Virus record (IMG/VR): IMGVR_UViG_3300037834_000022
Coordinates: 1 to 45,498 of that record
Direction: 5' to 3' (one strand)
Origin: a virus
Lineage: Duplodnaviria; Caudoviricetes
DNA length: 45,498 nucleotides
Shown: piece after piece, positions 1,371 through 45,498 of the stretch
Position numbering within the stretch: the first letter of the stretch is position 1
Layout of the letters: the number at the start of each line of letters is the position of its first letter
Notes under the pieces: model-generated
Seen by the model: only the letters and a program-made list of their open reading frames with translations
Databases searched by the model: none
What the model was told of the DNA's origin: nothing
Position numbers and translations under genes: made by a program

Positions 1371-2440
1371 GCTGCGTCCTCCTGCATTTCAACCGGCTGC
1401 CAGTCGCTGTCACACAGGCCGTAGGCGCTGCTGCAGGCGGTGGCGTCGGTTTCGCCGTCGCTGGCGATCAGGTCGTACTGGATGCCACCGCGTGTGGTGC
1501 GCGACCACTCAACGGCCTGGCGGATGTTCGCGATGTCGACGATCTGCTGAGCGCTCATGTCCTTGATTGAGCCCTGCTGGTGCTTGGCATTGGCGCCGGC
1601 AAAGAAGGTGGCGCCTTGGCGCTTGCTGGCCTGTCTCACGAGGTTTTCCCAGTGCTCGATGCGGTCGATCACCTCGGGCCAGCGGGCAGCAATCTCGCGC
1701 AGCTCGCCCTTGCGGCAGTTGATGCAGGGCATGCAGCCGACGCGGCCGGCGCCGAGGGTGTAAAGCGGGTTCGGCTTGATACCCATGTAGCGGTGCGCTT
1801 CGAACACGGCGGCCACGTCCCACTTGAGGATCGGGCGGTAGTTGTAGAGGCCGCCGCCCACCTCGTCGCACTCGGCCAGATAGCGGCGCACGTCGGATTC
1901 CTCTCGGCGTACACCTTGCCAGCTCATGATCATGTTCTGTCCGTCCATCAGTGGCAGCATGACCTGCTCGATGATGACGTTGCGCTTGAGTTCTTCGGTG
2001 CAGAACTGGGCCTTGCGACTGGGGAAACGGCCTTTCCACAGGCACAGGTCAAGGAACGGGATGCCGCTCGGCTGGAGTACCTGCAGGGCGGCTTCCACGA
2101 TGTTTTCTGCCACGCCCTGTTCGCGCCACTTGGTGCAGATGAACTCACGTTTGCGGGCGATCTGGCGGGAGAAATCCGCGCGGCGTCGCTCGATGCTAAC
2201 GCCCGTGGCTTGCTCCAGATAGTCGATGTACTCCAGCGTCAGCTCGTGCTCGTTGCCGGTGTCGGCGAACACGGCGCGCAGGTTGGGCGCGCCCTGGGCG
2301 ATGGCCAGCAGCAGGAGGGCGGTCGAGTCCTTGCCGCCTGAGACGCTGACGATGTTGTGCAGCAGGCCCAGCAGGATCTCGGTCGGGTGGAATGGCCAGC
2401 GGATCGCCGTGGCCAGGTCGAATTGGGTTGGGGCGGTCAT
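1367..2440 (-). CDS. Phosphoadenosine phosphosulfate (PAPS) reductase-family PP-loop protein
   Basis: PP-loop SVSGGKDS, FADTGNE, FCTEELK, GVRREES, RVGCMPC. Confidence 0.88.
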   Translation of the reverse strand: MTAPTQFDLATAIRWPFHPTEILLGLLHNIVSVSGGKDSTALLLLAIAQGAPNLRAVFADTGNEHELTLEYIDYLEQATGVSIERRRADFSRQIARKREFICTKWREQGVAENIVEAALQVLQPSGIPFLDLCLWKGRFPSRKAQFCTEELKRNVIIEQVMLPLMDGQNMIMSWQGVRREESDVRRYLAECDEVGGGLYNYRPILKWDVAAVFEAHRYMGIKPNPLYTLGAGRVGCMPCINCRKGELREIAARWPEVIDRIEHWENLVRQASKRQGATFFAGANAKHQQGSIKDMSAQQIVDIANIRQAVEWSRTTRGGIQYDLIASDGETDATACSSAYGLCDSDWQPVEMQEDAA

Positions 2441-3375
2441 GCTGCACCCCGCTGGACATCATGGCAGGGGGCCGGCAAGCTCGGTGCTTTTGAGGTGGCG
2501 AGGCGCCGGCGATGTCTGACAACTTCCTTGATAGAGACGTGCCGCGATTCACCTGGCGTGCAGTGATGCTCTGGGTAGCGTTGAGCCCCATTGCCGCTGT
2601 AGCGGTTTTCTTCATTGTTAGGGCGGAGGCGGCTGCTGCTTGGGTGCAGGCTGTCGGCTCCATCTTGGCAATTCTGGCTGCGGTCTGGATCGCCAGACAG
2701 GCTGATAGGCGAGCAGACAGTGAGCGTTTGCAATCTCAGGAAGTCTGCCTTGCGGTTGCGGCAAAAATCGCCAAGGACATATCTAGGACTGCAAAAGGCT
2801 TTCAGCTGGTTCTCAAAGTGATCGCTGAGAATGGCAACTGGTCCCAGGCATCCGATGGGCTGAGAACCCTTCTCGGTAAGGCAGAGGCGTTCGATGCAAC
2901 TAGGTTTGCTAATGCTGAAACTGCTACGGCGTTTCTTGAGCTGATAAGTCACCTCAGAGATTTGATGGCATCCATTCGATACTACGAAGCGAATGGCAAG
3001 GACAACTGGACGCTCCCTACTGTGGCGAACGAAATCGATGTATTGGTTCTTACCGTGCAGCGGTTTCTCGAAATAAGCTTGCACAGGTAGGCCTTTGTAC
3101 CCCTTAACAAGCTGCGCGTGCTGGCAACTTTGAGAGCGGAGCGATGGGCTCAACTCGCGGGCGCGGCGCACGCCTGTCGTGGGGTGTGCAGCTGCTGCGC
3201 AGCTGGCGGGCAGGGTATTGGATGATGTCGCGCCTTTGGCGCGGCGGTCTATAACGCCCCCGCGCGAGTCATGCAGGCGGCCGGCCGGCGCCGTGCAGGG
3301 CAGGTTCAGCGGGTGATGGCCGCCGCCGTGCTGTCGCACGGCAGTGGCTGGGGTGGCGGCGGGGGCTTGGGTCAT
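2437..3375 (-). CDS. Putative 312-aa low-complexity 'bridge' ORF spanning an antisense moron
   Basis: ATGA overlap with upstream gene at 3372-3375 and with downstream gene at 2437-2440; no recognisable domain. Confidence 0.4.
   Translation of the reverse strand: MTQAPAATPATAVRQHGGGHHPLNLPCTAPAGRLHDSRGGVIDRRAKGATSSNTLPASCAAAAHPTTGVRRARELSPSLRSQSCQHAQLVKGYKGLPVQAYFEKPLHGKNQYIDFVRHSRERPVVLAIRFVVSNGCHQISEVTYQLKKRRSSFSISKPSCIERLCLTEKGSQPIGCLGPVAILSDHFENQLKAFCSPRYVLGDFCRNRKADFLRLQTLTVCSPISLSGDPDRSQNCQDGADSLHPSSSRLRPNNEENRYSGNGAQRYPEHHCTPGESRHVSIKEVVRHRRRLATSKAPSLPAPCHDVQRGAA
2453..2481 (+). promoter_or_regulatory. Candidate sigma70-type promoter of the antisense moron
   Basis: TGGACA-17 nt-CAAGCT, about 30 nt upstream of ATG 2512. 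Confidence 0.4.
2512..3090 (+). CDS. Moron: hypothetical membrane protein (two N-terminal TM segments, helical C-terminus)
   Basis: Hydrophobic stretches AVMLWVALSPIAAVAVFFIV and WVQAVGSILAILAAVWIA; AT-richer than flanks; opposite strand to operon. Confidence 0.8.
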   Translation: MSDNFLDRDVPRFTWRAVMLWVALSPIAAVAVFFIVRAEAAAAWVQAVGSILAILAAVWIARQADRRADSERLQSQEVCLAVAAKIAKDISRTAKGFQLVLKVIAENGNWSQASDGLRTLLGKAEAFDATRFANAETATAFLELISHLRDLMASIRYYEANGKDNWTLPTVANEIDVLVLTVQRFLEISLHR

Positions 3376-3917
3376 GCGGCAGCCCTCGCTCGGTGGGTGG
3401 TGGCTAGCAGCTGCATGAGCCGGTCGAAGTAGGCCTGTGCGGCTTCGGGCTGGGTCATGGGCTTGATGCGGAACTGGGCCGGGTGGGTGCCGGTGAGGCA
3501 CGGCCAGGCGTCCGGGTGCGGGGCCATCAGGTCGCGCTTTTCGGTGGCCAGGGCGATCAGGTCGGCATCGTGGACGCTGGGCGGCAGCACCGGCTCGATG
3601 TCGAAGCGGTGGCAGATGGCGTGCCATACCCGCATTTCGATCTGGCGGTACTCGGGCAGTGCCTGTTTCAACGGGCTGACCAGGTCGCCAACGTAGGCTT
3701 CGGTGGCGTCATGCAGCAGGGCTTCCAGCTGGTACTGCGCGGGCACCAGCTCGGCGACGACGAGGCAGTGCTGGGCGACGCTGTAGAAGGTTTTGACGTG
3801 GCCGTTGAAGCGGCACTGCATGCTGAGTGCGTGGGCAATGTCGGTCGGGTCGACCATGTGGGCGGCCGGTTCGAGCAGGTCGAAGCGCTTGGCGCTGCGG
3901 GTGATGATCCAGCTCAT
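3372..3917 (-). CDS. HD-domain phosphohydrolase (YfbR/YfdR-like 5'-deoxynucleotidase family)
   Basis: DIAHALSMQCRFNGH, YSVAQH, ALLHDATEAYVGD, HDADLIALATE. Confidence 0.88.
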   Translation of the reverse strand: MSWIITRSAKRFDLLEPAAHMVDPTDIAHALSMQCRFNGHVKTFYSVAQHCLVVAELVPAQYQLEALLHDATEAYVGDLVSPLKQALPEYRQIEMRVWHAICHRFDIEPVLPPSVHDADLIALATEKRDLMAPHPDAWPCLTGTHPAQFRIKPMTQPEAAQAYFDRLMQLLATTHRARAAA

Positions 3918-4627
3918 GCTGCGGCCTCCTGTGCGGCGGCGGCCTGCAGGAGTTCGCCGTGGTTGCGGTCGAGGTCGTCGCTGTCGGCTTTGGCCTTGCG
4001 CAGCAGGGTGCGCAGGTCGTCGATGATCGGGTGATCCTCTGCGAATGCCTGGAAGCGCAGCTCGGCGGTTTCGAGGTCGAAATGCAGGGTGGCGTTCTCG
4101 TCCAGCCAGTCGATCAGCTCGCTGTCGGGGTGGGGCTGGCTGTTCGCCTGGGCCTTCTTGATGCGCTCGGCCATGTCCAGCACCTGGGCCTGCAGGTGGC
4201 GGCTGAAGCGGGCGTGATCGTGCGCGTTGAGGCCGGCAAAGGTGTCGCCGGCCAGCTCCAGCTTGTTGGCGACGGCGAGCAGGACGGCGTGGTCTTCGTC
4301 GCTGAGTGGCGCCGCAGCAGCCAGGCGGTTGAGCAGGCCGCGCTCGACCTTGCCGTGGTCCTCGGCCTCTGCCCGGATGTTGGCGCGCAGGGTCATTGCC
4401 TCGCGGGAGCGGGCGGCGAGCAGGTCGCGATGCTCGGCCAGCGCCTCGCGGAGCGGGTGCACGATGGATTTGCAGTGCTTGGCGGCGGTCTCTCGGCCTT
4501 GCTCGTAGCCAGCGGCTTTGCCGGTGCGCAGGCCGATGCAGTAGAAGATGATGCCGGCGACAGCGGCGCAGCTGAGGGCGGCGAAGATGCCGTAGACCTG
4601 CGCGGTGGTGAAGGTGGTGAGTTCCAT
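3914..4627 (-). CDS. Hypothetical phage protein, N-terminal TM plus coiled coil
   Basis: RBS GAGGAG; hydrophobic N-terminus; ATGA coupling to next gene. Confidence 0.8.
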   Translation of the reverse strand: MELTTFTTAQVYGIFAALSCAAVAGIIFYCIGLRTGKAAGYEQGRETAAKHCKSIVHPLREALAEHRDLLAARSREAMTLRANIRAEAEDHGKVERGLLNRLAAAAPLSDEDHAVLLAVANKLELAGDTFAGLNAHDHARFSRHLQAQVLDMAERIKKAQANSQPHPDSELIDWLDENATLHFDLETAELRFQAFAEDHPIIDDLRTLLRKAKADSDDLDRNHGELLQAAAAQEAAA

Positions 4628-4697
4628 GGTGTTGCTCCTCGTGTTGGCCGGTCGCTGGTGGTGGCAGCGGGTGCGGCTGTCAGGTGGTTTTGGTGGA

Positions 4698-4892
4698 TCA
4701 GTCGTCGTCGGGTTCGGGTGGATCTGCCAGGCCGGCCATCAGCTTGGCGGCGTAGGCGCTGTGGCCTTCCTCGCGCAGGTCGTCGTAGCGTCGCCAGTCT
4801 TCACAGAGGGCGATGTGTTCCTGGCAAAGCCCGATTTCTTTGTGGTCGAACTCGCCTAGTTCGGTGCGGCATTCGCGGCAGTAGCGGTACAC
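4698..4892 (-). CDS. Small Cys-rich (CxxC) hypothetical protein
   Basis: GTG start after AGGAGG; CRECR...LCQEH. Confidence 0.65.
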   Translation of the reverse strand: MYRYCRECRTELGEFDHKEIGLCQEHIALCEDWRRYDDLREEGHSAYAAKLMAGLADPPEPDDD

Positions 4893-4904
4893 GGGTCAGT
4901 CCTC

Positions 4905-5219
4905 CTACTCTGTCGGGTTGATCTTCTCTGCCAGTTCGGCGTCGGCCGCCTCGGCCTGGGTGTCGATGAAGATCGCCAGGTGACGGATGTCGATGAAGCG
5001 GCTGGCCTTGGCGCTGGGGTCCAGCCGGGTGACGGGCAGCGGGATGCGCAGCTCGCGCAGGGCGCGGGTGAAGTTGTCGTCGCTTAGTCGCTGGAAGTAG
5101 CGCTCGCGCACCTGGTCGACGGGGGCGAGCACGTCGCCGAAGGTGCGGTACAGCAGCTCGACGGTCTGCGCGCGTGGCGCAGGCGGCAGGCGTAGTTCGC
5201 GCTGGTTGGCCTGGCTCAT
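4905..5219 (-). CDS. prtN: Pyocin activator PrtN-family protein
   Basis: 104 aa; TVELLYRTFGDVL..VRERYF, IPLPVTRLDPS.KA, IRHLAIFID resemble PrtN. Confidence 0.82.
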   Translation of the reverse strand: MSQANQRELRLPPAPRAQTVELLYRTFGDVLAPVDQVRERYFQRLSDDNFTRALRELRIPLPVTRLDPSAKASRFIDIRHLAIFIDTQAEAADAELAEKINPTE

Positions 5220-5689
5220 GCTGCGTTCGCCTTGTTGTCGGCCAGCTGGTCAGCCAGGCGCTTGAGACTGACCTTGCCGGCGATGCGTGGCGGCGCCGGT
5301 TTGGTGTGCGGCTGGCTGGCCTTGCGGATATCGGCGTTGATGCCGGCAAGGGTGGCGCGGGCGGTTGAGCCGAACGCGACGAAGCGCGGCAGGGGCGCGG
5401 CGCTGTCGACGGGCTCGATAACGGCGCCCAGCTCGATGCCGTCCAGCCCGGCGCCTAGTCGCAGCATGGCGCGGGCGCGGTACTGGCTGCCGAGGTCGGC
5501 GGCGAGGTGTTCCAGGGCCGCGGCCAGCTGCAGGTGTTCGCGCTGCAGAGCGCTGCCTTCGGTGGTGAGGGAGAGCCCGGCAGCGGTGGCTGCCAGGGTG
5601 AGGTTGGCCAGGATCTTGTCCTGGGTGAAACGCTCGGCCGGGAGCTTGAGCAGCTCGATCAGCAGGGCCTCGATCAGTCGGGTGTCCAT
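5216..5689 (-). CDS. Hypothetical phage protein
   Basis: Coupled starts and stops within the leftward operon. Confidence 0.75.
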   Translation of the reverse strand: MDTRLIEALLIELLKLPAERFTQDKILANLTLAATAAGLSLTTEGSALQREHLQLAAALEHLAADLGSQYRARAMLRLGAGLDGIELGAVIEPVDSAAPLPRFVAFGSTARATLAGINADIRKASQPHTKPAPPRIAGKVSLKRLADQLADNKANAA

Positions 5690-5886
5690 CAGTCTTTCCT
5701 CTGTGGGTGGTTCCAGGCGATCTCGACGTGGGTACGCACGAGGTCGCGCAGGTGCTCCGGCACGTCGGCCAGTGCGGCGCGGCGTTCGTCTTTGCTCTTG
5801 AGCGCGACGATGACTGCGGCGTACTGGCGAGGGCGACGCGGGAAGGTGGCGGCGCCCTCGGTGACGGTGAAGGGCTCAAGCGACAT
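5689..5886 (-). CDS. Small hypothetical phage protein
   Basis: MSLEPFTV...PRQYAAVIVAL...LVRTHVEIAW; coupled to neighbours. Confidence 0.7.
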   Translation of the reverse strand: MSLEPFTVTEGAATFPRRPRQYAAVIVALKSKDERRAALADVPEHLRDLVRTHVEIAWNHPQRKD

Positions 5887-6166
5887 CGCGCGGGTCTGCC
5901 TGTGGTTCTGGCATTGGGCGCTCGATGCCGAGCTTCTCGGCAAGCCAGGGAATGCCGGCGTCGGTGACGCGGGTGGTGCGTGGGTACTGCCAGCCGGCGT
6001 CGGGGTGGATGTAGCGGTTCTCGCGGGTGACCAGGTAGGCCTTGGTCATCTCCGGGTTGGCCGGCAGGTTGTGGCGGTCGAGGATGCCGGCCGCACGCAT
6101 GCGCTTCATCAGGTCGCGGTGCCCGATGCCGAGGCGCTGGGCGGTGTACTTGAGGGAGTTGGACAT
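5876..6166 (-). CDS. Phage antirepressor KilAC/ANT-like domain protein
   Basis: AQRLGIGHRDLMKRMRAAGIL and TTRVTDAGIPWLAEKLG match the ANT C-terminal pattern. Confidence 0.7.
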   Translation of the reverse strand: MSNSLKYTAQRLGIGHRDLMKRMRAAGILDRHNLPANPEMTKAYLVTRENRYIHPDAGWQYPRTTRVTDAGIPWLAEKLGIERPMPEPQADPRDVA

Positions 6167-6176
6167 GGCGGCTTCC

Positions 6177-6776
6177 TCACGCTGCGGCCGCGCGTTGCGG
6201 CGTGGCGATGATGTGCAGGTGCTCGATGCTGATCAGCAGGCGCTTGAGGCATTCGCGCTGGTCGCCACGCACGGTGAAACACTTGGTGCGCGGGCGGGCG
6301 GCGCCGATGCTGGCGATGACGGTCACACCCTCTGCCGGCCGGGTGCGGTGCACGGCGACGTTAATCGGGTGCTCGTGGCCGGTCTCAAGGCTGGCGAAGC
6401 CGCCGTGGCGCACCATGTGCTTGAGCCGGCCGAGCTGGGCTTCGTTCAGCAGGGCGTCCGGCTCGGGCAGCAGGGGGGCGCGGGTGACGCGGGGCGGTGC
6501 CAGCTCGCCACCGTCCACGCGGCCGTTGGCAATGGCGTCAATGAAGTCCGCGACCTGCAGGTGCTTCTCGGGGTGGGCGGTCTGCACGTCGAGGCTGTGC
6601 ACCTGGTCGCCCATCTCGATGCGCACGGCGGTGTTGGGCTGACCGCGCTCGATACGCACGCGGGCGAGCAGCTGGTGACCGCCGTAGGCGGAGCGCAGGG
6701 CGTGGGTGAAGGTGCCGGTGAGGTTGAGCTGGGCCTGCAGGCGCAGCAGGGCGTCTTCGGGGAGGGTGAAGTTCAT
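6177..6776 (-). CDS. Hypothetical phage protein
   Basis: 199 aa ORF, ATGA-coupled in operon. Confidence 0.75.
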   Translation of the reverse strand: MNFTLPEDALLRLQAQLNLTGTFTHALRSAYGGHQLLARVRIERGQPNTAVRIEMGDQVHSLDVQTAHPEKHLQVADFIDAIANGRVDGGELAPPRVTRAPLLPEPDALLNEAQLGRLKHMVRHGGFASLETGHEHPINVAVHRTRPAEGVTVIASIGAARPRTKCFTVRGDQRECLKRLLISIEHLHIIATPQRAAAA

Positions 6777-7057
6777 GCTGCCACCTTCTTGGCCGGAGCT
6801 ACCAGCCAGGTGTGGGGGGCTTGGCCCTGCTCCATGCGCCGGTAGTAGGCGGCGCTGATGGTCAGCTCGCTTGCACGGTCATACTCGTCGGCGGTGATTG
6901 CCCCGAGGATGAAGGCGGCATAGATCATGCCGTGGGCTTTATCGGCGTGGGTGTCGATGGCGAGGGGGTGGCTGGCTTCGCGCGCCCACTTGAGCTCGCG
7001 CAGCAGGCCACGGCGCCAGATGCTGATCTTCTGGGCTGGAGTAGATTGGATTGCCAT
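6773..7057 (-). CDS. Hypothetical phage protein
   Basis: 94 aa; TAATG coupling with upstream small ORF. Confidence 0.7.
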   Translation of the reverse strand: MAIQSTPAQKISIWRRGLLRELKWAREASHPLAIDTHADKAHGMIYAAFILGAITADEYDRASELTISAAYYRRMEQGQAPHTWLVAPAKKVAA

Positions 7058-7218
7058 TACGCAGCCCTCCCGCCGTCGTTCGGGTCGAAGGGGGCAGGTG
7101 CGGTGCGGGGCTTGGGTTTTACGCGAGAGAACTGGCAGCCGGCTGCCTGGGCAGCGCGGCGCAGTTCAAAGATGCGCTCGGTCTGGCAAGACGGCAGCGC
7201 GTGGACGGATGCAGACAT
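7057..7218 (-). CDS. First gene of leftward early operon, 53 aa (absent from ORF track)
   Basis: MSASVHALPSCQTERIFELRRAAQAAGCQFSRVKPKPRTAPAPFDPNDGGRAA; RBS GAGGT; TAATG overlap with next gene. Confidence 0.7.
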   Translation of the reverse strand: MSASVHALPSCQTERIFELRRAAQAAGCQFSRVKPKPRTAPAPFDPNDGGRAA

Positions 7219-7253
7219 GGGTTACCTCGGCTCTGTGGTGGAGAGACGAGGCA

Positions 7254-7297
7254 AATAAAACGTATCGTTGTTGATATGTCAACAACGAAATGTTGTA
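7254..7297 (-). promoter_or_regulatory. PL promoter with two repressor operators (OL)
   Basis: TTGACA (7277-7282, minus strand) flanked by 17-bp dyads TAAAACGtatCGTTGTT (7256-7272) and AACAACGaaaTGTTGTA (7281-7297), matching OR. Confidence 0.75.
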
Positions 7298-7311
7298 TTT
7301 GGGTTTGAGGG

Positions 7312-7944
7312 TTACCCGAAGATGGATTTTTGCCAGTGTTCCTCGGTGATGATGGCTAGCGGGTTGCCGTTTTCGCGCAGCTCTACGGCCTTTTTGATCT
7401 TGGTGCCGTAGCTGCTGTGTAGCCATTGGTCGTTGCCAATGGAGCCGACGACGAGGTAGTGGACTTTCTTGCTGACGCTCGGGGCGATGAGACCGCCGCG
7501 CTCGGTCACCAGCGCTTCGCAATCTTTGCGGGGGCCGTAGGCCATGACGCCAGTGAACAGGAACAGGCGGTTGTCCCAGTGCAGGCTCGGTGCGGGCTGG
7601 TCGATGGGGAGCGAGGTCGGTGCCTGGAATGGGTGGGCCTTGCAGAGCTCCAGGCCGGTGAACTGTTTGAGCAGACCCAGCAACTCGGCGGATTCGGCGG
7701 CGTCCAGCAGGTTGTCGCTGAGCATGTCGGCGAGGCGGCGATAGAGGATGTTTACCACCGGGTCGGCCAGGTGGTTCAAGTTCGTCTCGATCCAGCGCTT
7801 GAGAAACTCTGCCTCTTGCTGGTTGATCGTGTTGTCAGCTGTGATGCCTGCCGCCAGGCCTATCAGGGCGTCGGCTGATCTGCGATCAATGCGGGCCTCA
7901 TGAAAACAGCGACTGTTCTGAAACTCCTGATGCAGATCGACCAT
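7312..7944 (-). CDS. BRCT-domain protein with helical (TerB-like) N-terminus
   Basis: C-terminal FLFTG...CEALVTERGG...SVSKKVHYLVVG...KIKKAVEL...IITEEHW is a BRCT signature. Confidence 0.82.
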   Translation of the reverse strand: MVDLHQEFQNSRCFHEARIDRRSADALIGLAAGITADNTINQQEAEFLKRWIETNLNHLADPVVNILYRRLADMLSDNLLDAAESAELLGLLKQFTGLELCKAHPFQAPTSLPIDQPAPSLHWDNRLFLFTGVMAYGPRKDCEALVTERGGLIAPSVSKKVHYLVVGSIGNDQWLHSSYGTKIKKAVELRENGNPLAIITEEHWQKSIFG

Positions 7945-8344
7945 CCTGCGCGTCTCCTTCGGCTGTGTCTTCCGTGGTTTGGTCTAGGAGCTTGCTGATG
8001 TCAGGCGTAAAGGTGACCACCATGCCGGTTTTGCTGCAGGTGATGGTGACCTCTGCCGCAGGGTCTATCGCAAGGTCCTCGCCGCGCAGGCCTTGCCATT
8101 GGGCGAGGTACTGCAGGGCTCCATACTTCTCTAGCTTCTTGAGGGTGCGGCTGACGCCGCCTTTCCAGTTGGTTGCTGGCAGTTCGTCGCGGCCGGCAGC
8201 CTCGGCCAGTTCGGGCTTCGACTTGGCCAACTGGCGACCGACTTCCCAGCACTTGATCAGACCTTTGTCTTCGCCTTCCCAGGTGGCATGCCAGTCGAGG
8301 CCGGTGCGAATGGGGGTGTCTATGCTGCGGCGGATTGCGGTCAT
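7898..8344 (-). CDS. Hypothetical protein coupled to cI
   Basis: ATG 8344 overlaps cI stop (TAATG); 148 aa globular-looking. Confidence 0.75.
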   Translation of the reverse strand: MTAIRRSIDTPIRTGLDWHATWEGEDKGLIKCWEVGRQLAKSKPELAEAAGRDELPATNWKGGVSRTLKKLEKYGALQYLAQWQGLRGEDLAIDPAAEVTITCSKTGMVVTFTPDISKLLDQTTEDTAEGDAQDGRSASGVSEQSLFS

Positions 8345-9030
8345 TAGAGGGCGCCTCCGTGCCAGACCACGCGGCCAACGATGCTCAGTTGTTCTAGGTC
8401 TGTATCGCTGACGGGCTGGTCGGGGTAGGCGCGCTTGTCTTCGTTGTCGCTGCGGATCAGCCACCCGCCAGTGAGGGACTGGATAAGCCGCTTGATGATC
8501 AGCTCGCCGTCATGCTTGCGGATGGCATAAATGCGGCCATCACGCGGGGCTGTCTGGCTTTCGTCGAGCAGCACTACATCGCCGTCGCAGACGGTCGGCT
8601 CCATGCTGTGGCCCTGGACGTAAATAACGTGCAGGCTGCGTTCGCGCAGGCTCATGCGGGTGAGCCAGGCGCGCTTGAACACAAGGCCGCCCTTGACTTC
8701 GACATGGTCGTTCAGCTGGCCGTTGCCGGCGGCGCCGTGCGCGGTGTACTGGGGCACCAGAGCATAGTCCTGGGCTGATGGCGTATACCCGTAGACGCCT
8801 TGGCTCTCGGTGGCCTGGGCAGGGGCGTCGTAGTCGAGCAACTCGATAAGCGTGGTATCGAGAGCCGCTGCGAGGGTGCGTAGGTCCGAGAGGCTTGGTT
8901 CGCGCTTATCGCGTTCGTAGTTGCCGATACGTGCTTGGCCGTTATCCCACCCGCATGCGTTTGCGAGTGCTGTTTGGGATAGACCTTTGGCGCGGCGGAG
9001 CCGAGCGATTCGATTGCCGAGAGTTTCCAT
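8344..9030 (-). CDS. cI: CI-like repressor (XRE HTH + S24 autopeptidase; PrtR-like)
   Basis: HTH RLRRAKGLSQTALA...IGNYERDKREP; cleavage site GAAG; VQGHSMEP and LIIKRL catalytic Ser/Lys. Confidence 0.92.
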   Translation of the reverse strand: METLGNRIARLRRAKGLSQTALANACGWDNGQARIGNYERDKREPSLSDLRTLAAALDTTLIELLDYDAPAQATESQGVYGYTPSAQDYALVPQYTAHGAAGNGQLNDHVEVKGGLVFKRAWLTRMSLRERSLHVIYVQGHSMEPTVCDGDVVLLDESQTAPRDGRIYAIRKHDGELIIKRLIQSLTGGWLIRSDNEDKRAYPDQPVSDTDLEQLSIVGRVVWHGGAL

Positions 9031-9040
9031 GGCGGGAAAA

Positions 9041-9106
9041 TATCACGCTGCGTTTATTTTAATAACGACTAAACGTGTTGTAAAAACAACGATGTGTTGT
9101 TAATGT
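9041..9106 (+). promoter_or_regulatory. OR/PR switch region
   Basis: PR TTGTAA(9078)-17-TAATGT(9101); operator AACAACGatgTGTTGTT (9085-9101) and weaker TATCACGctgCGTTTAT (9041-9057). Confidence 0.75.
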
Positions 9107-9134
9107 TCTTTCGGAGTTAACCGGAGGTCGCAAC

Positions 9135-9362
9135 ATGAACCGCATATCTCAGCTTCGGCGTGGCGCCAAAATCGCGCAGCTCGCCCTGGCTACTGAGCTT
9201 GGCTGGTCGCAGGGCCGGTTGAGCAACTACGAAGCCGGCAGGCGCGAGCCAGGGCTTGCCGAGTGCCGCGCTATTGTCCGTGCGCTCAGCGCGCTGGGTG
9301 CTCCTTGCTCTCTTGACGAGGTTTTCCCGCCTGAACAGGAGCCCCCTGCGCAGGCCGCTTAG
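9135..9362 (+). CDS. cro: Cro-like HTH regulator
   Basis: Divergent from cI; LATELGWSQGRLSNYEAGRREP; RBS GGAGG. Confidence 0.88.
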   Translation: MNRISQLRRGAKIAQLALATELGWSQGRLSNYEAGRREPGLAECRAIVRALSALGAPCSLDEVFPPEQEPPAQAA

Positions 9363-9390
9363 AAAAAAGGCGCCCGAAGGCGCCCTGTTT
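9363..9390. terminator. tR1-like hairpin after cro
   Basis: AAAAAA-GGCGCC-cgaa-GGCGCC-CTGTTT. Confidence 0.55.
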
Positions 9391-9768
9391 CCCGGCCGCC
9401 GTTGTAGCGGTGGCCGCCAGAGCCCGAGGGCTCTGTGTTGCCTGCCTCTCCACCACAGATCAGCAGGCTTGCTGTGACCACCTGACTAAGGGGAGCCACG
9501 GCGTGACTATAGCAACACGTCATGCCGTGGTCACTGGCAGCTTGCTACGGCGGCTGCCACACCCGAGGCGCGCACCACCACTGCGCGCCGCACCTGGGCC
9601 GGGATGCCTGGGGTTGTTCGTCCGCTGCCACCACCAGCGGGCGAGCTGTAAGGGCAGGGCCTGTGCGGAGCATGGGCCTTGCTCGGGGTGCGGTCGGTTC
9701 GCCGGCTGCATGCGACCACCTGACTATGGGCCCCATACCAGTCGGTATGGGGCCGGGAGTTTTGCTCT
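9363..9768 (+). ncRNA. Highly structured cro-cII intergenic RNA (about 10 consecutive hairpins, three with CCACCAC loops)
   Basis: Stems readable by eye, several with G-U pairs valid only on the + strand (see findings). Confidence 0.6.
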
Positions 9769-10287
9769 ATGAACCGAGCCCGTCTCAGTTCCACCGAGCG
9801 TGCCAAGCGCACGTTGTTGACCCTGCCGCAGGCGCTTTACCACGCCGTGCATCAGTACCCCGGCGGCGCCACCGCCATTGCCGCCGTCGACGGCGCGATC
9901 AGCCCTTCAACCCTGAACCATAAGCTGAGCCTGACCGGCGCGAACCCGAAGCATCGGGTGAACGTCGATGAGCTGCAGCTGATTCTCGACCTGACCCGCG
10001 ATGCGCGCATTGTCGATGCGATCCTGCAGCCGATTGGCTGGGTGGGCGTGGACGTTTCCGAGTTGAGCGAGACGGACACGCCGCAATCGCTGCTCGCTGG
10101 CATCACGGGCTTGCTGCGCAGCGAGAACGACCTGAGCGAGCAACTGGCCAAGGCGATGGCGGATGACCACCTGGACGACGACGAGCTGGCTCAGTTCGAG
10201 CTGCTGGCGGTGCGCATGCTGCAGGCGGTGTTCAAGTTGCGCGCCGTGGTGCGCCTCAAGCATGAGGAGGGGCGGGCGGATGGCTGA
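9769..10287 (+). CDS. Phage regulatory CII-family protein
   Basis: ALYHAVHQYPGGATAIA...STLNHKL...ILDLTRDARI typical of this family; position after cro. Confidence 0.75.
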   Translation: MNRARLSSTERAKRTLLTLPQALYHAVHQYPGGATAIAAVDGAISPSTLNHKLSLTGANPKHRVNVDELQLILDLTRDARIVDAILQPIGWVGVDVSELSETDTPQSLLAGITGLLRSENDLSEQLAKAMADDHLDDDELAQFELLAVRMLQAVFKLRAVVRLKHEEGRADG

Positions 10288-10495
10288 TAACGCAGATCGC
10301 GCGGCGGATGAATACGCCGTGCACGAGCAGGCCCGGGCCGCCGGCAGGGTGAAGGTGGCGCCTGTACATCGACTGGGGTGTGACGAGTGCGACGAGCCGA
10401 TTCCGCTGGCCAGGCGCGAGGCGCTGGCGGGGCATGACTGCCTGCTGTGCGTGGATTGTCAGGAACTGCTGGAGCGGAAAGGGGGTGCGCGATGA
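10280..10495 (+). CDS. TraR/DksA C4 zinc-finger protein (PtrB-like)
   Basis: MADNADRA...CDECDEPIPLARREAL...CVDCQE. Confidence 0.88.
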   Translation: MADNADRAADEYAVHEQARAAGRVKVAPVHRLGCDECDEPIPLARREALAGHDCLLCVDCQELLERKGGAR

Positions 10496-10770: not shown

Positions 10771-13001
10771 CAGGCCGTCACGAACTACTCGACGACGTGC
10801 TGGCCCAGCTGCAGGCCGCTGACCTGCGCCCGACTACGCCGCTGGTGATTGGCAAGCGCACCCGCTGCGAGGTGGAGGGAGACAAGGCGCCGGAGAAAAC
10901 TGGCTGGTATGTGATCTATGAGCACACGGGCTCGAAGGGCGAAACCTTCTACTGCGGCTCGTTCGGTGATTGGCGCTCGGGGGAGAAGGGCAGCTGGCAC
11001 AAGATCAAGCCGAAGGGCGGCAAGATCTCGGCCGAGGATCGCGCCGTAATGAAGGCCCGCGCCGAGGAGGGCCAGCGCAAGGCGGCCGAGGCCGAGCAGA
11101 AGAAGCACCGCACGGCGGCGCGGCGTGCCGCGGGCATCTGGAAGTATCTGGAGGAGAAGGGGCACTGCGCGTATCTGGATGCCAAGCGCGTCGGTGGCTT
11201 TGGCCTGCGCTACAAGCGTAAGTCGGGCACTGCGCTGGTGCCGATGCGCAGTGTGAAGACGTGGGACATCGTCGGCCTGCAGGTGCTGTTCCCGGCTGTG
11301 GTGCCGAAGCTGGGGCGGAACAAGACCTATTGGCCGTATGGCCTGGAGAAAGAGGGGGCGGTGCATCTGATCGGCCCGGAGCCAGAGCCAGGCGACACCA
11401 TTCTGGTGTGCGAGGGCTACGCGACGGGCGCAAGCCTGTATATGGCGACCTCGCTGACGGTGGCGGTGTGCTTCGACGCGGGCAACCTGTTGCCGGTGGC
11501 GCAGGGGCTGCGGGTGCGCTACCCGGGCCGGCCGTTGGTGTTCTGTGCGGACGATGACTGGAAGACGGAGATCCAGGGCAAGCCGGTGAACGTCGGCAAG
11601 ATCAAGGCCGAGAACGCGGCGCACATCACTGGTGGCCGTGTGGTGCTGCCGGTGTTCGATAGCGAGCGCGAGGACAAGTGGACGGACTTCAACGACCTGC
11701 ACTGCGCCGAGGGCCTGGAGGCGGTGAAACGCCAGGTGGAGGCGGTGGTGCGGCCAGCCACTGACGCGCCCTGGCGGGAGAAGCTGCAGTATGCGGAGAA
11801 GGGCGGGATGATCGCGCACCCGTACAACGTGGCGTTGATCCTGGGGAACGATGACCGCTGGGGCAAGGTGATTGCGTTCGATTCGTTCAGCTCGAAGATC
11901 CGCAAGCTGCGGACGCCGCCGTATGGTGGCAGCGCTGGGGATTGGAGCGACCTCGATGACATCAAGGTGATGAACTGGCTGGCCGAGACCTACGGCTTGC
12001 GGGTGAAGACTGCGCATGTGGTGGAGGCGGTGAACGCGGTGGCGCATGACAATGCGTTTCACCCGGTGCGCGAGTATCTGGAGGGGCTGACCTGGGATGG
12101 CACGCCGCGGCTGGAGACCTGGCTGCAACGGCACCTTGGTGTGGCTGATGGCGAGTATGCGCGCAAGGTGAGCAAGCGCTGGCCGCTGTCTGCTGTGGCT
12201 CGGGTGTTCCAGCCTGGCTGTAAGGCGGACTCGGTGTTGATCCTCGAAGGGGCTCAGGGCGCGGGTAAGTCGACCTCGATGTCGATCCTGGGCGGGCTGT
12301 GGTTCATGGATACACCGTTCAACCTGGGCGACAAGGACGGCTATCAGGCGATCCGGGGTAAGTGGATCGTCGAGCTGGGCGAGCTGGACGCCTTCAACAA
12401 GGCGGAGTCGACGCGGGCCAAGCAGTTTTTCTCGGCCTCGGTGGATACGTACCGGGAGAGCTACGGGCGCCGGGTGCTGGATGTGCCGCGCCAGTGCGTG
12501 TTCGTGGGTACGACCAACCAAGACGAGTACCTGAAGGACGACACGGGGAACCGGCGCTATTGGCCGGTGATGTGCACGAAGGTGGCACTGGACGGCCTGC
12601 GGGCCGAGCGCGATCAACTCTGGGCCGAGGCGGTAGCTTGTTATCGCGCCGGGCACCCTTGGTGGGTGGAGCGGGACGAGGCCGAGGTGTTCGCGGCCGA
12701 GCAGGACAAGCGCTATCAGGCGGATATGTGGGAGGAACCCATTATCGCGTACCTGCAGCAACCGGCGTGCGGCGAGAGCGTGACGGGGGCGCAGATCCTT
12801 GAGAAGGCGTTGAACATCGACCCGAGTCACTGGGGCAAGCCGGAGCAGATGCGGGTCGGCAAGATCATGCATCGGCTCAAGTGGCCTCGGCGCCGACAGA
12901 GCAAGCCGGACAGGCCAACGGGCTCGCGTGGCTATGTGTACGTGCGGCCAGATGATTGGAAGAAAGGCGCCAAGCCCGTGCAGAGGGAGGCCGCATTTTG
13001 A
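10767..13001 (+). CDS. Toprim primase fused to VapE/VirE-family helicase
   Basis: VCEGYATG, CFDAGNL, CADDD, TDFNDL; Walker A GAQGAGKST; GTTN, GNRRYWP. Confidence 0.92.
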   Translation: MTGRHELLDDVLAQLQAADLRPTTPLVIGKRTRCEVEGDKAPEKTGWYVIYEHTGSKGETFYCGSFGDWRSGEKGSWHKIKPKGGKISAEDRAVMKARAEEGQRKAAEAEQKKHRTAARRAAGIWKYLEEKGHCAYLDAKRVGGFGLRYKRKSGTALVPMRSVKTWDIVGLQVLFPAVVPKLGRNKTYWPYGLEKEGAVHLIGPEPEPGDTILVCEGYATGASLYMATSLTVAVCFDAGNLLPVAQGLRVRYPGRPLVFCADDDWKTEIQGKPVNVGKIKAENAAHITGGRVVLPVFDSEREDKWTDFNDLHCAEGLEAVKRQVEAVVRPATDAPWREKLQYAEKGGMIAHPYNVALILGNDDRWGKVIAFDSFSSKIRKLRTPPYGGSAGDWSDLDDIKVMNWLAETYGLRVKTAHVVEAVNAVAHDNAFHPVREYLEGLTWDGTPRLETWLQRHLGVADGEYARKVSKRWPLSAVARVFQPGCKADSVLILEGAQGAGKSTSMSILGGLWFMDTPFNLGDKDGYQAIRGKWIVELGELDAFNKAESTRAKQFFSASVDTYRESYGRRVLDVPRQCVFVGTTNQDEYLKDDTGNRRYWPVMCTKVALDGLRAERDQLWAEAVACYRAGHPWWVERDEAEVFAAEQDKRYQADMWEEPIIAYLQQPACGESVTGAQILEKALNIDPSHWGKPEQMRVGKIMHRLKWPRRRQSKPDRPTGSRGYVYVRPDDWKKGAKPVQREAAF

Positions 13002-13363
13002 TCCCTGAAATGGATGACATGTTGAAGCTGTGGGCGCTGGATATGCACGGCGGCCCCGGAGTTGGTGGCTCAGGCGGCAGCATGATCGCCGAGCTGATGG
13101 CGACCAAGGGTGAGCTGATCCGCGCCAAGGGCTGTGGCTCGCGGATGCTGCTGCCGTACAGTGCGGATATCGAGCTGATCGTGAACAAGCATCTGGACGC
13201 GCAGCTTGCCGTGGTGGTGCGTGAGCACTACCTGGTGCGTGACCCACATCGGATGGATAGCCAGAAGTATGCGGCTTGCCGGTGTAGTCGCGCGCAGTTC
13301 TATCGCTATCTGCATGACGCGCACGTGGCGATTGCAGGTATGCTGCTGGAGCGGGCGGCGTGA
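12998..13363 (+). CDS. PA0613-like putative late-gene regulator/antiterminator
   Basis: TTG start after GGGAGG; C-terminal HTH-like CSRAQFYRYLHDAH; Q-gene position before late promoter and terminators. Confidence 0.7.
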   Translation: MIPEMDDMLKLWALDMHGGPGVGGSGGSMIAELMATKGELIRAKGCGSRMLLPYSADIELIVNKHLDAQLAVVVREHYLVRDPHRMDSQKYAACRCSRAQFYRYLHDAHVAIAGMLLERAA

Positions 13364-24423: not shown

Positions 24424-24548
24424 ATGGCTTGTGACAATTTCTACCTGACGAGGGCGGCCCTTCTGTCAAGATGAATTTGACGCAATCACTTGACTTGGGC
24501 AGAATCGCGCCCCAATTTGATAGTGGCATTTTGTACAGGGGGGCGAAA

Positions 24549-25022
24549 ATGAGTAAATCTCTAGCAGTAGCTCAGTACATACTCGATGCGACTCGTGATA
24601 TGCACGACGATGCGCTTACGCCAATGCAGCTAATCAAACTCGTTTATGTCGCTCACGGGTACATGTTGGCTGAGTACGGTGAGCCCTTGCTTCGTGAGCC
24701 TGTAGAGGCTTGGAAGTACGGACCAGTAGTTCGTAGCGTTTACGAGGCGGTACGCGATTATCGTTCCTCGCCTGTTGATCAAGTGCCGGGTGCGCATCGT
24801 TGGAATGGTCGGTTCACCGAGCAGGAATGTGACATCATGGATCAGGTGGCTGAGATCTATGGTGGAATTAATGGTGTACGCCTTTCGGCCGCAACCCATA
24901 AGCCAAATACGCCTTGGAGTATCACTTGGGATCGTTTCGGGCGGAACGCCGAGATTTCCAATGATTTGATTGAGGATTTTTACGATTACATCCTCTCTCA
25001 ACCAAGCCACTCATCTCTATAG
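24549..25022 (+). CDS. Panacea (DUF4065/SocA-like) antitoxin
   Basis: LTPMQLIKLVYVAHG, EAWKYGPVV, THKPNTPW; AT-richer than flanks. Confidence 0.9.
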   Translation: MSKSLAVAQYILDATRDMHDDALTPMQLIKLVYVAHGYMLAEYGEPLLREPVEAWKYGPVVRSVYEAVRDYRSSPVDQVPGAHRWNGRFTEQECDIMDQVAEIYGGINGVRLSAATHKPNTPWSITWDRFGRNAEISNDLIEDFYDYILSQPSHSSL

Positions 25023-39035: not shown

Positions 39036-39335
39036 ATGCGACACCTCGTTCTAAAACGCCGCGCCGGAGAGCGTCTCTTTCTGCACGTAGAGCGTGATGC
39101 CGACCCCGTAAAGATCCTCGAGCAGCTGCAGGATGAAGGCATCATGCTTGAAGTGCGCGAAGTTCGAGCGGGACAAGTCAAGCTGTCAATTGAAGCCCCG
39201 AGTGATGTCGGCATTGCACGGGAAGAGCTAGGCGAGTTCGATGTTCGGGACAGCCGGGGCTATCGGCGGCAGCGTGCAATAAAGGGGGGGAGCTGTTCAG
39301 GTCGAGAATCACCCGCAGATCACGAGAAGCGATAA
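39036..39335 (+). CDS. Second CsrA/RsmA-family protein, RsmN/RsmF-type, with basic C-terminal tail
   Basis: LVLKRRAGERL, helix VKILEQLQDEG, GQVKLSIEAPSDVGIAREEL. Confidence 0.82.
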   Translation: MRHLVLKRRAGERLFLHVERDADPVKILEQLQDEGIMLEVREVRAGQVKLSIEAPSDVGIAREELGEFDVRDSRGYRRQRAIKGGSCSGRESPADHEKR

Positions 39336-42994: not shown

Positions 42995-43693
42995 TTATGA
43001 GTCTGATAGCTGAAGCTGTATAAGCTCCGGCCCATCGTTCCGCACATTCCCCACCGCCCGGTCGACCGGGTACCACTCGAAGTCCTCGGCCGGGCGGCCC
43101 TGGTGCAGCAGGATCTGCTCGGCGCGGTGCGGAGTCGTTGCGTCGTCCACCCACTCGCGGGCCAGCTCAGGGCTGAGCACCACCGGCCTGCGGTCGTGCA
43201 CGTCCACCATGCCGCCCTCGGCGTCGGCGGTGATGATCACGAAGCCGTCGCCTTCCTGGCTCTCCCCGCCGGCGGGTGGTAGCTGGCCGATGGCCGCGAA
43301 GAACAGCGGGTCGCCGCTGCGCAGCCTGATGTAGTAGGGCTGCTTGAGTTTCGGGTTGTCTTCGTCCTTCACCCATTCATACCAGCCGTCGGCCGCGACC
43401 AGCGCGCGGTGCGGCCAGATATGCCTGAAGAAGTTGCCAGTGGCGACCTTCTCGACTCGGGCATTGATCGGCGGCGGCATCTTCCCTCGCGCCCAGTGCG
43501 GCGCCCATCCCCACCTCACCTCTGCCACCACCAGATGGCCGCCTGTGCTGTGCAGCAGCTGCACTTGGGTGCTCGGCGCCACGTTGTAGCGCTGTATCGG
43601 CTCGGCCTCCCAGCCGCCGATCACATCCTGCTCGCTGTCCAGCTCGCGCAGGTAGTCGCGCATGCCCCGGTACTGGGCGAACCTTCCGCACAT
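42995..43693 (-). CDS. SOS response-associated peptidase (SRAP/YedK/HMCES family)
   Basis: MCGRF, RYNVAPS, INARVE, GWYEW, VHDRRPV. Confidence 0.93.
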   Translation of the reverse strand: MCGRFAQYRGMRDYLRELDSEQDVIGGWEAEPIQRYNVAPSTQVQLLHSTGGHLVVAEVRWGWAPHWARGKMPPPINARVEKVATGNFFRHIWPHRALVAADGWYEWVKDEDNPKLKQPYYIRLRSGDPLFFAAIGQLPPAGGESQEGDGFVIITADAEGGMVDVHDRRPVVLSPELAREWVDDATTPHRAEQILLHQGRPAEDFEWYPVDRAVGNVRNDGPELIQLQLSDS

Positions 43694-43729
43694 CCCCTCG
43701 TCCTCCTGTCGCTCGCCTTCAGCATGGCA

Positions 43730-43774
43730 TTGACGCTGTACGTGTCAATGCAAATACTGTTTGCATATACAGTA
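43730..43774 (+). promoter_or_regulatory. SOS promoter with LexA box between SRAP and umuD
   Basis: TTGACG-17-AATACT overlapped by TACTGTTTGCATATACAGTA (43755-43774). Confidence 0.85.
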
Positions 43775-43793
43775 TCAAGTTTAGGTAATAGCC

Positions 43794-44231
43794 TTGGCCA
43801 GCGTCAGCATCCTCGGTCCCGTCGCACCCGGCGGCGCCGAAATTCCCTACTTCCTCCCCAGCGTACCTGCCGGCTTCCCCAGTCCGGCCCAGGATCACCT
43901 TGAGCAGCGCATCTCCCTCGACGAGTTGTTCGGCCTGCATCGACCGCAGATCTACCTGGTGCGCGTGGGCGGCGACAGCCTGAAGGGCCTGGGCATTCTC
44001 GACGGCGACCTGGTGTTGGTGGACAAAGCGCTGAAGGCGCGCCGCGGCGACGTGGTAGTGGCGTGTGTGAACGGCGAACCGCTGCTGAAGATCCTCGAGG
44101 GCGACCAGCACCAAGTGATCCTGCTCTCGGCCAACCCGCAGTACCCGCCGCGCTATGTGCTCGAGGCCGAGGAGTTCCAGGTGTGGGGCGTGTTCATCGG
44201 CCTGTGCCGGCAGGGCCGCCACTGTGGCTGA
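43794..44231 (+). CDS. umuD: DNA polymerase V subunit UmuD/RulA
   Basis: VPAGFPSPAQD, VGGDSL, PLLK; TTG start. Confidence 0.9.
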   Translation: MASVSILGPVAPGGAEIPYFLPSVPAGFPSPAQDHLEQRISLDELFGLHRPQIYLVRVGGDSLKGLGILDGDLVLVDKALKARRGDVVVACVNGEPLLKILEGDQHQVILLSANPQYPPRYVLEAEEFQVWGVFIGLCRQGRHCG

Positions 44232-45498
44232 GCACGTGTTCGCGCTGATCGACTGCAACGCCTTCTACTGCAGCTGCGAGCGAGTGTTTCGGCCCGACCT
44301 GGCGCGCACGCCCATCGTGGTGCTGAGCAACAACGACGGCTGCGTGGTGAGCAGAACGGCCGAGGCCAAGGCGCTGGGCGTGCCGATGGGTGTGCCGTGG
44401 TTCCAGATCCGCAAGGAGTTCGAGGCGGCCGGCGGGATAGCATTCAGCTCCAACTATGCGCTATACGGCGACATGAGCGAGCGGGTGATGACGGTGATCG
44501 AGAGTCTGGTGCCGGCGCTGGAGGTGTACAGCATCGACGAAGGGTTCGCCGAGCTGACCGGCATGCTCGGCGACCTCGATGTGCTCGGCCGCGAGATCCG
44601 CGCCCAGGTGCTGGCGTGCACCGGCATCCCCACCGGCGTCGGCATCGGGCCGACCAAGACCCTGGCCAAGCTGGCCAACTACGCGGCGAAGCGCTGGCAG
44701 AAGCAAACGGGCGGGGTGGTTGATATCCGCGACCCTGATCGGCGCGCCAAGCTGTTGGCCGCTACGCCCGTGGGCGAGGTGTGGGGCGTAGGCCGGCGGC
44801 TGACCACCCGCCTGGGCGACCTGAGCATCAAGACGGCTGCCGACCTGGCCGCGGCCGATGCCTGGACCCTGCGCAAGCAGTTCAGCGTGGTGCTGGAGAA
44901 GACGGCGCGCGAACTGCGGGGCATCGCCTGCCTCGAGCTGGACGGCGAGGCGCCGCCGAAGCAGGAGATTTGCTGCAGCCGGATGTTCGGCAAGCGCCTG
45001 CGCGAGCTGCCGCCGATCCGCGAGGCGGTGGCCACCTATGCCGCCCGGGCCTGCGAGAAGCTGCGCGCCCAGGGCTCGGTGTGCAAGCGGGTGCGGGTGA
45101 GCATCCGCACCGGCATGTTCAACCCGGACGAACCCAAGTTCGCCCGCGGCGTGATGTGCGAGCTGCCGTACCCGAGCGACGACACCCGGCTGATCACCCA
45201 GGCGGCGCTGGCCGGCCTGGAGCAGGTGTATCGCCCGGGCTTCGCCTTCAGCAAGTCCGAGGTGCTGCTGCTCGACCTGTGCCAGCGCGGCGAGTACACC
45301 GACGACCTGTTCGGCCCAACGCAGCCGAAGTCTTCGCAGAAGGTGATGGCGGTGCTGGATGCGGTGAACGCGAAGTGGGGGAGAGGGACGCTGCGCCCTG
45401 GCGTGGTGCCGCCGACACCAGAGTGGGGGATGAGGCGGGAGATGATGAGTCGGAGTTTTACTACCAGGCTGGAAGGATTGTGGCAGGTGACTGGTTAG
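44224..45498 (+). CDS. umuC: DNA polymerase V subunit UmuC/RulB (Y-family)
   Basis: ALIDCNAFYCSCE, LSNNDGC, YSIDE, TKTLAKLAN, WGMRREMMS. Confidence 0.93.
   Translation: MAEHVFALIDCNAFYCSCERVFRPDLARTPIVVLSNNDGCVVSRTAEAKALGVPMGVPWFQIRKEFEAAGGIAFSSNYALYGDMSERVMTVIESLVPALEVYSIDEGFAELTGMLGDLDVLGREIRAQVLACTGIPTGVGIGPTKTLAKLANYAAKRWQKQTGGVVDIRDPDRRAKLLAATPVGEVWGVGRRLTTRLGDLSIKTAADLAAADAWTLRKQFSVVLEKTARELRGIACLELDGEAPPKQEICCSRMFGKRLRELPPIREAVATYAARACEKLRAQGSVCKRVRVSIRTGMFNPDEPKFARGVMCELPYPSDDTRLITQAALAGLEQVYRPGFAFSKSEVLLLDLCQRGEYTDDLFGPTQPKSSQKVMAVLDAVNAKWGRGTLRPGVVPPTPEWGMRREMMSRSFTTRLEGLWQVTG

Follow-up and report, generated by a model that had tools for sequence, protein, structure and literature searches.

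CCACCAC-loop hairpins on both early transcripts of a temperate phage as possible targets of a CII-induced antisense RNA

The c4 RNA of phages P1 and P7 is cut from its target transcript, and paQ is a CII-activated antisense RNA; the boxB of lambda is a GNRA-like pentaloop that switches type among lambdoid phages on both early transcripts, and HK022 put consists of a pair of adjacent stems that act on RNA polymerase in cis. P22 sar and lambda OOP are described as small antisense RNAs of the lysis-lysogeny switch, and phage-specific variation of c4 as the basis of P1/P7 heteroimmunity (PMC12197685, in excerpt). The virus record IMGVR_UViG_3300037834_000022 of IMG/VR, analyzed over its whole length of 45,498 nt (the window), belongs to a temperate phage of lambda-like layout with a CII of the 186 type, and its two divergent early transcripts carry hairpins with the 7-nt loop CCACCAC. 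An antisense RNA of C4-like type, induced by CII and acting in trans, probably (probability about 0.65) has these hairpins as its targets and would damp early lytic translation. The class of mechanism is already known from c4, CI and sar; the CII-driven, opposite-strand, multi-target layout appears to be new, since neither it nor a description of the element was found in Rfam or in the literature searched, the coverage of which stopped short of subscription papers and bioRxiv supplements.

The hairpins and their loop code

Five CCACCAC hairpins had been reported in the initial annotation of this DNA, and all of them were found in transcript sense, with loops at 9450, 9575 and 9628 on the plus strand and at 7241 and 4664 on the minus strand (Table 1). 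Their closing pairs have probabilities of 0.51-0.98. As the bare 7-mer is frequent in the window (30 observed vs 8.5 expected), only the hairpin context counts, and the remaining 25 of the 30 sites form no hairpin (closing-pair probability <=0.02). Between 3300 and 9780 this one 7-nt loop occurs five times, a number that none of 100 dinucleotide shuffles reached for any loop; the identities reported between left and right copies are also exact (14 nt, 7232-7245 = 9446-9459; 18 nt, 4653-4670 = 9622-9639). A sixth proposed hairpin, with a CCATCAC loop at 3307-3325, does fold (P 0.78), and among the 14 CCATCAC sites of the window just that at 3313-3319 closes a hairpin; it sits, however, inside the reading frame opening at ATG 3375 and is absent at the homologous position in 13/13 relatives, so that it is probably due to chance and was rejected as a member of the element. 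The statement that the hairpin of the leftward early promoter (PL) covers the ribosome-binding site of the first gene holds through the outer arm alone (7251-7248), and this arm probably lies upstream of the PL start point (+1, placed at ~7247).

Related loci were gathered by CII queries, with the addition of five phage records, and 42 non-redundant cro-cII leaders were retained from the first 141 sequences; all counts given here are uncorrected for phylogenetic relatedness. In these leaders CACCAC closes a loop at 104/155 sites of the sense strand, against 0/3 of the opposite strand; on the left sense strand the figure is 99/424, compared with a right-arm background of 15/178 and 22/318. Two left sites recur, one directly past the PL -10 and 13-18 nt upstream of the first ATG, the other 25-40 nt upstream of the gene that follows the PrtN-like gene. 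The NCACCAC loops are borne by 33 distinct 4-bp stems, and one 21-nt PL pattern has 59 exact matches in viral contigs. The proposal that both early transcripts bear a conserved, apparently undescribed element acting at the RNA level, its loops fixed and its stems variable, was borne out; comparison with Rfam, whether at the gathering threshold or at E<=10, gave no real match, and a search with model R1 matched the two known sites alone.

In clade 2 (LPPA56-like) the equivalent places carry CTCTAC, CTCTCAC, CTCTGAC, CTCTAAC, CTCTTAC, CTCTATT or CACCAC, and at least seven loop types occur across the relatives. For the comparison of the two sides 230 loci were used: a PL site was detectable in 140, corresponding to 124 distinct first-gene proteins, and 90 were excluded as incomplete, outside the pattern or undetected. 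The PL loop type is that of the leader in 123/124 loci, and in 22/23 of those with loops other than CACCAC, the sole disagreement being a locus with both loop types in its leader; the phage-specific co-variation of RNA and target that marks c4 and P4 CI is thus present here. Seven excluded loci were re-examined, and five proved to be rare variants matched on both sides (TACCAC in four, CCACCAA in one), the other two lacking a PL match. From this agreement it follows that something phage-specific reads single loop bases. Leader loops of the searched types were found neither in Acidovorax and Paraburkholderia phages (loci L228 and L229) nor in L004.

A predicted leftward RNA between cro and cII

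The initial annotation overlooked a promoter and a terminator on the opposite strand of the cro-cII leader, from which an RNA complementary to the loops is predicted. This RNA comprises a 5' hairpin, a GUGGUGG-loop hairpin, two more hairpins and the terminator; the fold of 9358-9500 (-) has -76.2 kcal/mol (z -4.9), and the minus-strand consensus fold reaches -115 kcal/mol, with 31/95 compensatory pairs. A scan of the window puts the promoter at 9534-9506 and the terminator at 9386-9367. The extended -10 is present in 34/42 leaders vs 110/4200 shuffles, and the inverted repeat with a 20-bp centre spacing in 40/42 vs 27/4200; clade 2 has a different leftward promoter pattern, in 33/34 loci. Next to the CP76 cII gene of the window, the inverted half-sites stand at -38/-58, the positions given for the CII half-sites of coliphage 186 (PMC6593788, in excerpt). 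One stem pair of the terminator is a minus-strand G-U in 7/16 cases. At least one CACCAC loop falls within the predicted RNA span in 43/45 loci, and the two exceptions have TACCAC loops matching their own PL site.

According to the proposed mechanism, the leftward promoter would fire once CII is bound to the inverted repeat, most transcripts would end at ~138 nt at the terminator of the cro stop, and the CCACCAC loops would be the places where the GUGGUGG loop of the RNA seeds pairing. This pairing would grow to 14 bp at the PL 5' end, adjoining the ribosome-binding site of the first gene; the 5' hairpin of the RNA would find its partner in a second motif, located next to the 4627 gene and upstream of cII, and in cis the RNA would pair fully with the cro-cII leader. 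The net effect would be a push toward lysogeny, plus feedback on cII. Among 2777 sequence windows, the PL site ranks first for the loop seed (-32.5 kcal/mol) and the motif copy upstream of cII ranks first for the 5'-hairpin seed (-34.2 kcal/mol).

The second motif is unpaired and overlaps the AUG or first codons; leader sequence is mirrored at left-arm start codons in this way, usually from the 5' hairpin of the predicted RNA. It is clade-specific or even phage-specific (L078, L011, L013, LPPA36, Halomonas), co-varies at start codons with the leader (ACACAGCACATG, GCACACCACATG, GCAAACCAAATG, ACCACCATGCA) and stands beside the internal hairpin also in L002, L090, L094 and L098. Left-arm starts sharing at least 10 nt with the leader number 165/685 (72/75 loci), vs 30, 19 and 14 in the controls, and matches per locus are 2.20 with the own leader, 1.07 with a foreign leader of the same type and 0.57 with one of another type. 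The matches extend into the stems, with 12.1 nt for the own leader vs 10.6 nt for a foreign leader having the same loop (32/46). Given two unrelated co-varying motifs and an identity that continues into the stems, an RNA reader is simpler than a protein reader; as judged from the sequences, the loops would be complementary to early-gene ribosome-binding regions, like those of c4 and P4 CI.

Table 1. Positions in the window of the hairpins, the predicted leftward unit and the neighboring genes
Feature	Position	Strand	Details
CCACCAC hairpin 1; complementary to the GUGGUGG loop of the predicted RNA	9440-9468	+	minus-strand fold -16.8 vs plus-strand -11.4 kcal/mol
CCACCAC hairpin 2, cII leader; beyond the predicted RNA, loop-only match	9567-9589	+	cofold gain -2.9 kcal/mol
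CCACCAC hairpin 3, cII leader; beyond the predicted RNA, loop-only match	9618-9644	+	cofold gain -5.0 kcal/mol
PL 5'-end CCACCAC hairpin; adjoins first-gene Shine-Dalgarno sequence (SD, 7228-7225); predicted main target, 14-nt match	7224-7252	-	
Internal CCACCAC hairpin, ~30 nt upstream of ATG 4627	4653-4669	-	
Second motif, CCACCTGAC core; complement in 5' hairpin of predicted RNA	9476-9488	+	
Second-motif copy, ~43 nt upstream of cII ATG; predicted target of RNA 5' hairpin	9714-9726	+	
Second-motif copy adjoining internal hairpin (two-site target)	4679-4688	-	rank 4 of 2777 windows, -27.3 kcal/mol
Predicted ~138-nt antisense RNA	9362-9499	-	ends inferred from promoter and terminator
pE-like leftward promoter: -35 GTGACC, 17 bp, TG-extended -10 TATAGT	9506-9534	-	
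Predicted CII site, inverted repeat TGGCA-N15-TGCCA	9535-9559	.	centres -38/-58 of inferred +1 (9499)
Intrinsic terminator at cro stop	9363-9386	-	present in 30/42 leaders
Inferred PL promoter: TTGACA, 17 bp, TTTATT	7254-7282	-	sequence; TTGAC with equal spacing in relatives
First PL gene, 53 aa, beta-alpha-beta model	7057-7218	-	phrog_35204
CI repressor (helix-turn-helix, HTH, + S24)	8344-9030	-	
cro-like HTH gene	9135-9362	+	
CII, CP76 (186-type) family	9769-10287	+	PF06892 E 2.5e-18

The predicted RNA resembles P1/P7 c4 and P4 CI most in action, and falls outside both families by model match and by its opposite-strand origin. With c4 (RF01695) it shares loop-borne sequences complementary to ribosome-binding regions, and a KilAC antirepressor-domain gene is present in the left operon here; it differs in lying on the strand opposite to its targets, in having its own promoter and terminator and in having targets on both operons, and the Rfam C4 model gave no match in the element. 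The C4 and c4-a1b1 motifs, compared from excerpts of PMC2864571, are unlike this element in appearance. Control of early genes by short-seed pairing at two sites is a likeness to the P4 CI RNA and IsrK/SeqA (PMC4825925, in excerpt). The CI RNA is processed from a same-strand primary transcript between seqA and seqC, whereas here the loop complement lies on the opposite strand and is not enriched on the same strand (0.020 vs 0.017 per kb); a same-strand antisense origin was therefore rejected, and the Rfam isrK model reached only E 3.1, on the terminator. The leftward promoter is like coliphage 186 pE in its CP76 CII, its convergent direction and the inverted half-sites; there pE transcribes cI, whereas here a conserved terminator intervenes and the transcript has target-complementary loops. 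Unlike sar, OOP and paQ, which have one overlapping target each, the predicted RNA would have several targets, at distant start regions, and recognize them by a phage-specific code.

Several observations weigh against this reading. The RNA contig run gives one flat piece across the whole stretch, three raw-read runs hold 0 prophage reads, and the 14 RNA runs that contain the clade-2 stretch do so as contigs only. Wobble asymmetry does not favor pairing, with 17 G-U-compatible vs 23 incompatible mismatches. The leader stems favor the CACCAC strand (G-U 14 vs A-C 5) and the plus strand also folds, with 25/77 compensatory pairs, so that the sense RNA is under selection too; a G-rich minus strand folds more strongly in any case. 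Hairpins 9567 and 9618, together with the 18-nt identity with 4653-4670, are outside the predicted RNA, and there the cofold gain is -3 to -5 kcal/mol, a value that for these two hairpins excludes kissing energies. The terminator was not found in 12/42 leaders, its place between pE and cI fits the known job of pE awkwardly, and some clade-2 phages retain internal CACCAC sites that mismatch their own loop.

If the antisense RNA is real, a common family of Pseudomonas prophages would have an undescribed layer downstream of CII in its lysis-lysogeny switch; the RNA would act on the choice as an additional brake, explain why a terminator is present between pE and cI, and represent a second specificity code besides the repressor, its natural orthogonal loop/target pairs being ready-made antisense parts. 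A wider scenario is put forward tentatively, and we hold it to be somewhat doubtful: a Pseudomonas/Halomonas temperate-phage family may have turned its CII establishment promoter into a multi-loop, guide-like RNA gene, whose product silences gene starts in both early operons. The code would be phage-specific, with at least seven loop types, so that co-infecting phages of the same type could vote on each other's lysogeny, and GGA loops of the opposite strand would be recognized by host Rsm proteins.

The window has a minority layout (9/45 loci): its leader is duplicated, and hairpins 9567 and 9618 are located beyond the promoter. Tandem duplication of the leader module (window 9470-9730; L040, L068, L073, L148, L151, L157, L169, L178) arose in both clades. 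Two loop types occur in one leader in L148 and L151, and the left-arm sites of L148 are also of both types. In the left arms of L158, L159, L165 and L172 internal CACCAC hairpins persist although the loops of these phages are CTCTNAC; such hairpins are candidate orphans or cross-talk sites for co-resident prophages.

Protein readers and other explanations

The same motifs might be translational operators for an RNA-binding protein, working in a Csr/Rsm-like way but by another loop code, the multi-loop leader acting as a sponge and the leftward promoter as an ordinary pE; this we consider unlikely. The motifs, in loops and across start codons, do resemble Rsm sites, the wobble test is neutral, and the window encodes a CsrA-family protein; moreover, GGA hexaloops occur in 39/40 clade-1 leaders, alternating with the CACCAC hairpins (CACGGATG in 23 cases), and in 5/34 of clade 2. 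Switches of single loop bases, and two motifs unrelated to each other, would, however, call for a co-varying protein, and no family tracking the loop type was found within about 8 kb on each side; the identity continues into the stems, and the CsrA-like gene was found in 3/42 relatives, which represent two loop types, while the closest complete relative lacks it, so that its product was rejected as a universal partner. Of 23 families common in 74 clade-2 loci, 19 include pairs with >=95% identity between phages of different loop type; in the remaining four (first gene, CI, Cro and a short open reading frame, ORF, opposite cI) members as little as 31-48% identical go with the same loop, and for the first gene, CI and Cro loops differ at up to 87-93% identity.

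The CsrA-family gene lies at 39036-39335 (+), in the late region after lysis-type genes (PF02599, E 1.2e-9, with an internal insertion), and none was found in the phage collection searched. GGA hexaloop hairpins are seen in the window at 9593-9612 and 9655-9680 (+). Their form matches that described for high-affinity Rsm binding (PMC4005645, in excerpt), and those of clade 1 are candidate sites for RsmA/RsmE, through which the decision of the phage would depend on the Gac/Rsm state; the selection on the sense strand may be partly due to them.

The role originally proposed for the hairpins, nut/put-like antitermination or protein recruitment, found no support: in it, a phage or host factor, or RNA polymerase itself, would be recruited by the loops of both early transcripts, the internal copies being boosters. 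Such a role seems improbable, even if the sites lie on either side of the immunity region, on both transcripts, and change type together, with one site early on each divergent transcript as in lambda nut/N and HK022 put, and the stems favor the sense strand. Unlike nut, the 7-nt loop is C/A-rich and not of GNRA type; the PL site is one short hairpin. The boxA hexamer is exact at 1/52 PL sites (15/52 with one mismatch) and at 0/5 window hairpins; an intrinsic-terminator scan found no minus-strand terminator-like site inside the PL operon. The left sites keep a fixed short distance from start codons, and the second, unpaired motif overlaps AUGs. No Arg-rich N-like protein was seen among 10 left-arm ORFs (at most 4 Arg per 12 residues), nor did the scan of about 8 kb yield a co-varying one. 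The first PL protein, the partner suggested earlier, was rejected: 60 members gave no Pfam match above noise, a best atlas score of 0.77 and no fold match at E<=0.001, and it does not track the loop type, since L158 and L159 have near-identical first proteins and different loops. Its gene is predicted to be a target of the antisense RNA, and not a partner of the loops.

An antisense RNA of opposite sign also has a low probability; its pairing would open target hairpins and free the ribosome-binding site, or a constitutive promoter would make it an immunity factor of the lysogen. The clade-2 SD lies inside the PL hairpin, IsrK activates through such a switch (PMC4825925, in excerpt), and the extended -10 is near consensus. 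Pairing at the second motif, however, should keep ribosomes out, since this motif spans the AUG or first codons, and the CII-type repeat is retained in 40/42 leaders. That the copies are due to chance, or are repeats acting as DNA (Chi-like sites, iterons, operators), is very improbable: the 7-mer is over-represented in the window and two CCACCAC copies contain the Chi octamer, but hairpin context, strand bias, compensatory stems and conservation contradict this.

Gene setting of the window

CII relatives of the window were found in Pseudomonas genomes. The window also has DksA-like and primase-helicase genes, and its left operon, besides KilAC, PrtN-like and HD hydrolase genes. The PL promoter is absent from the output of a promoter scan of the window; a palindrome with 10-bp arms at 7265-7288, over the PL -35, is probably a CI operator. 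Two cargo genes lie between cI and PL (7312-8344, -), one coding for 148 aa without family and the other for a 210-aa phrog_3989 protein with weak ligase and PDC-S48 matches; they are possible defence morons. The PrtN-like, DksA/TraR-like and phrog_4300 genes are at 4905-5219, 10280-10495 and 12998-13363, a set reminiscent of the pyocin regulatory block. A SocA/Panacea antitoxin-domain gene (PF13274) is located among tail genes at 24471-25019 (+), and the right end (42998-45498) holds a SRAP gene and a UmuC-family polymerase gene. In LPPA56 (L006), the region 1460-3000 contains three GAAAGCGG-loop repeats at the 3' ends of adjacent genes, suggestive of the variable regions of a diversity-generating retroelement.

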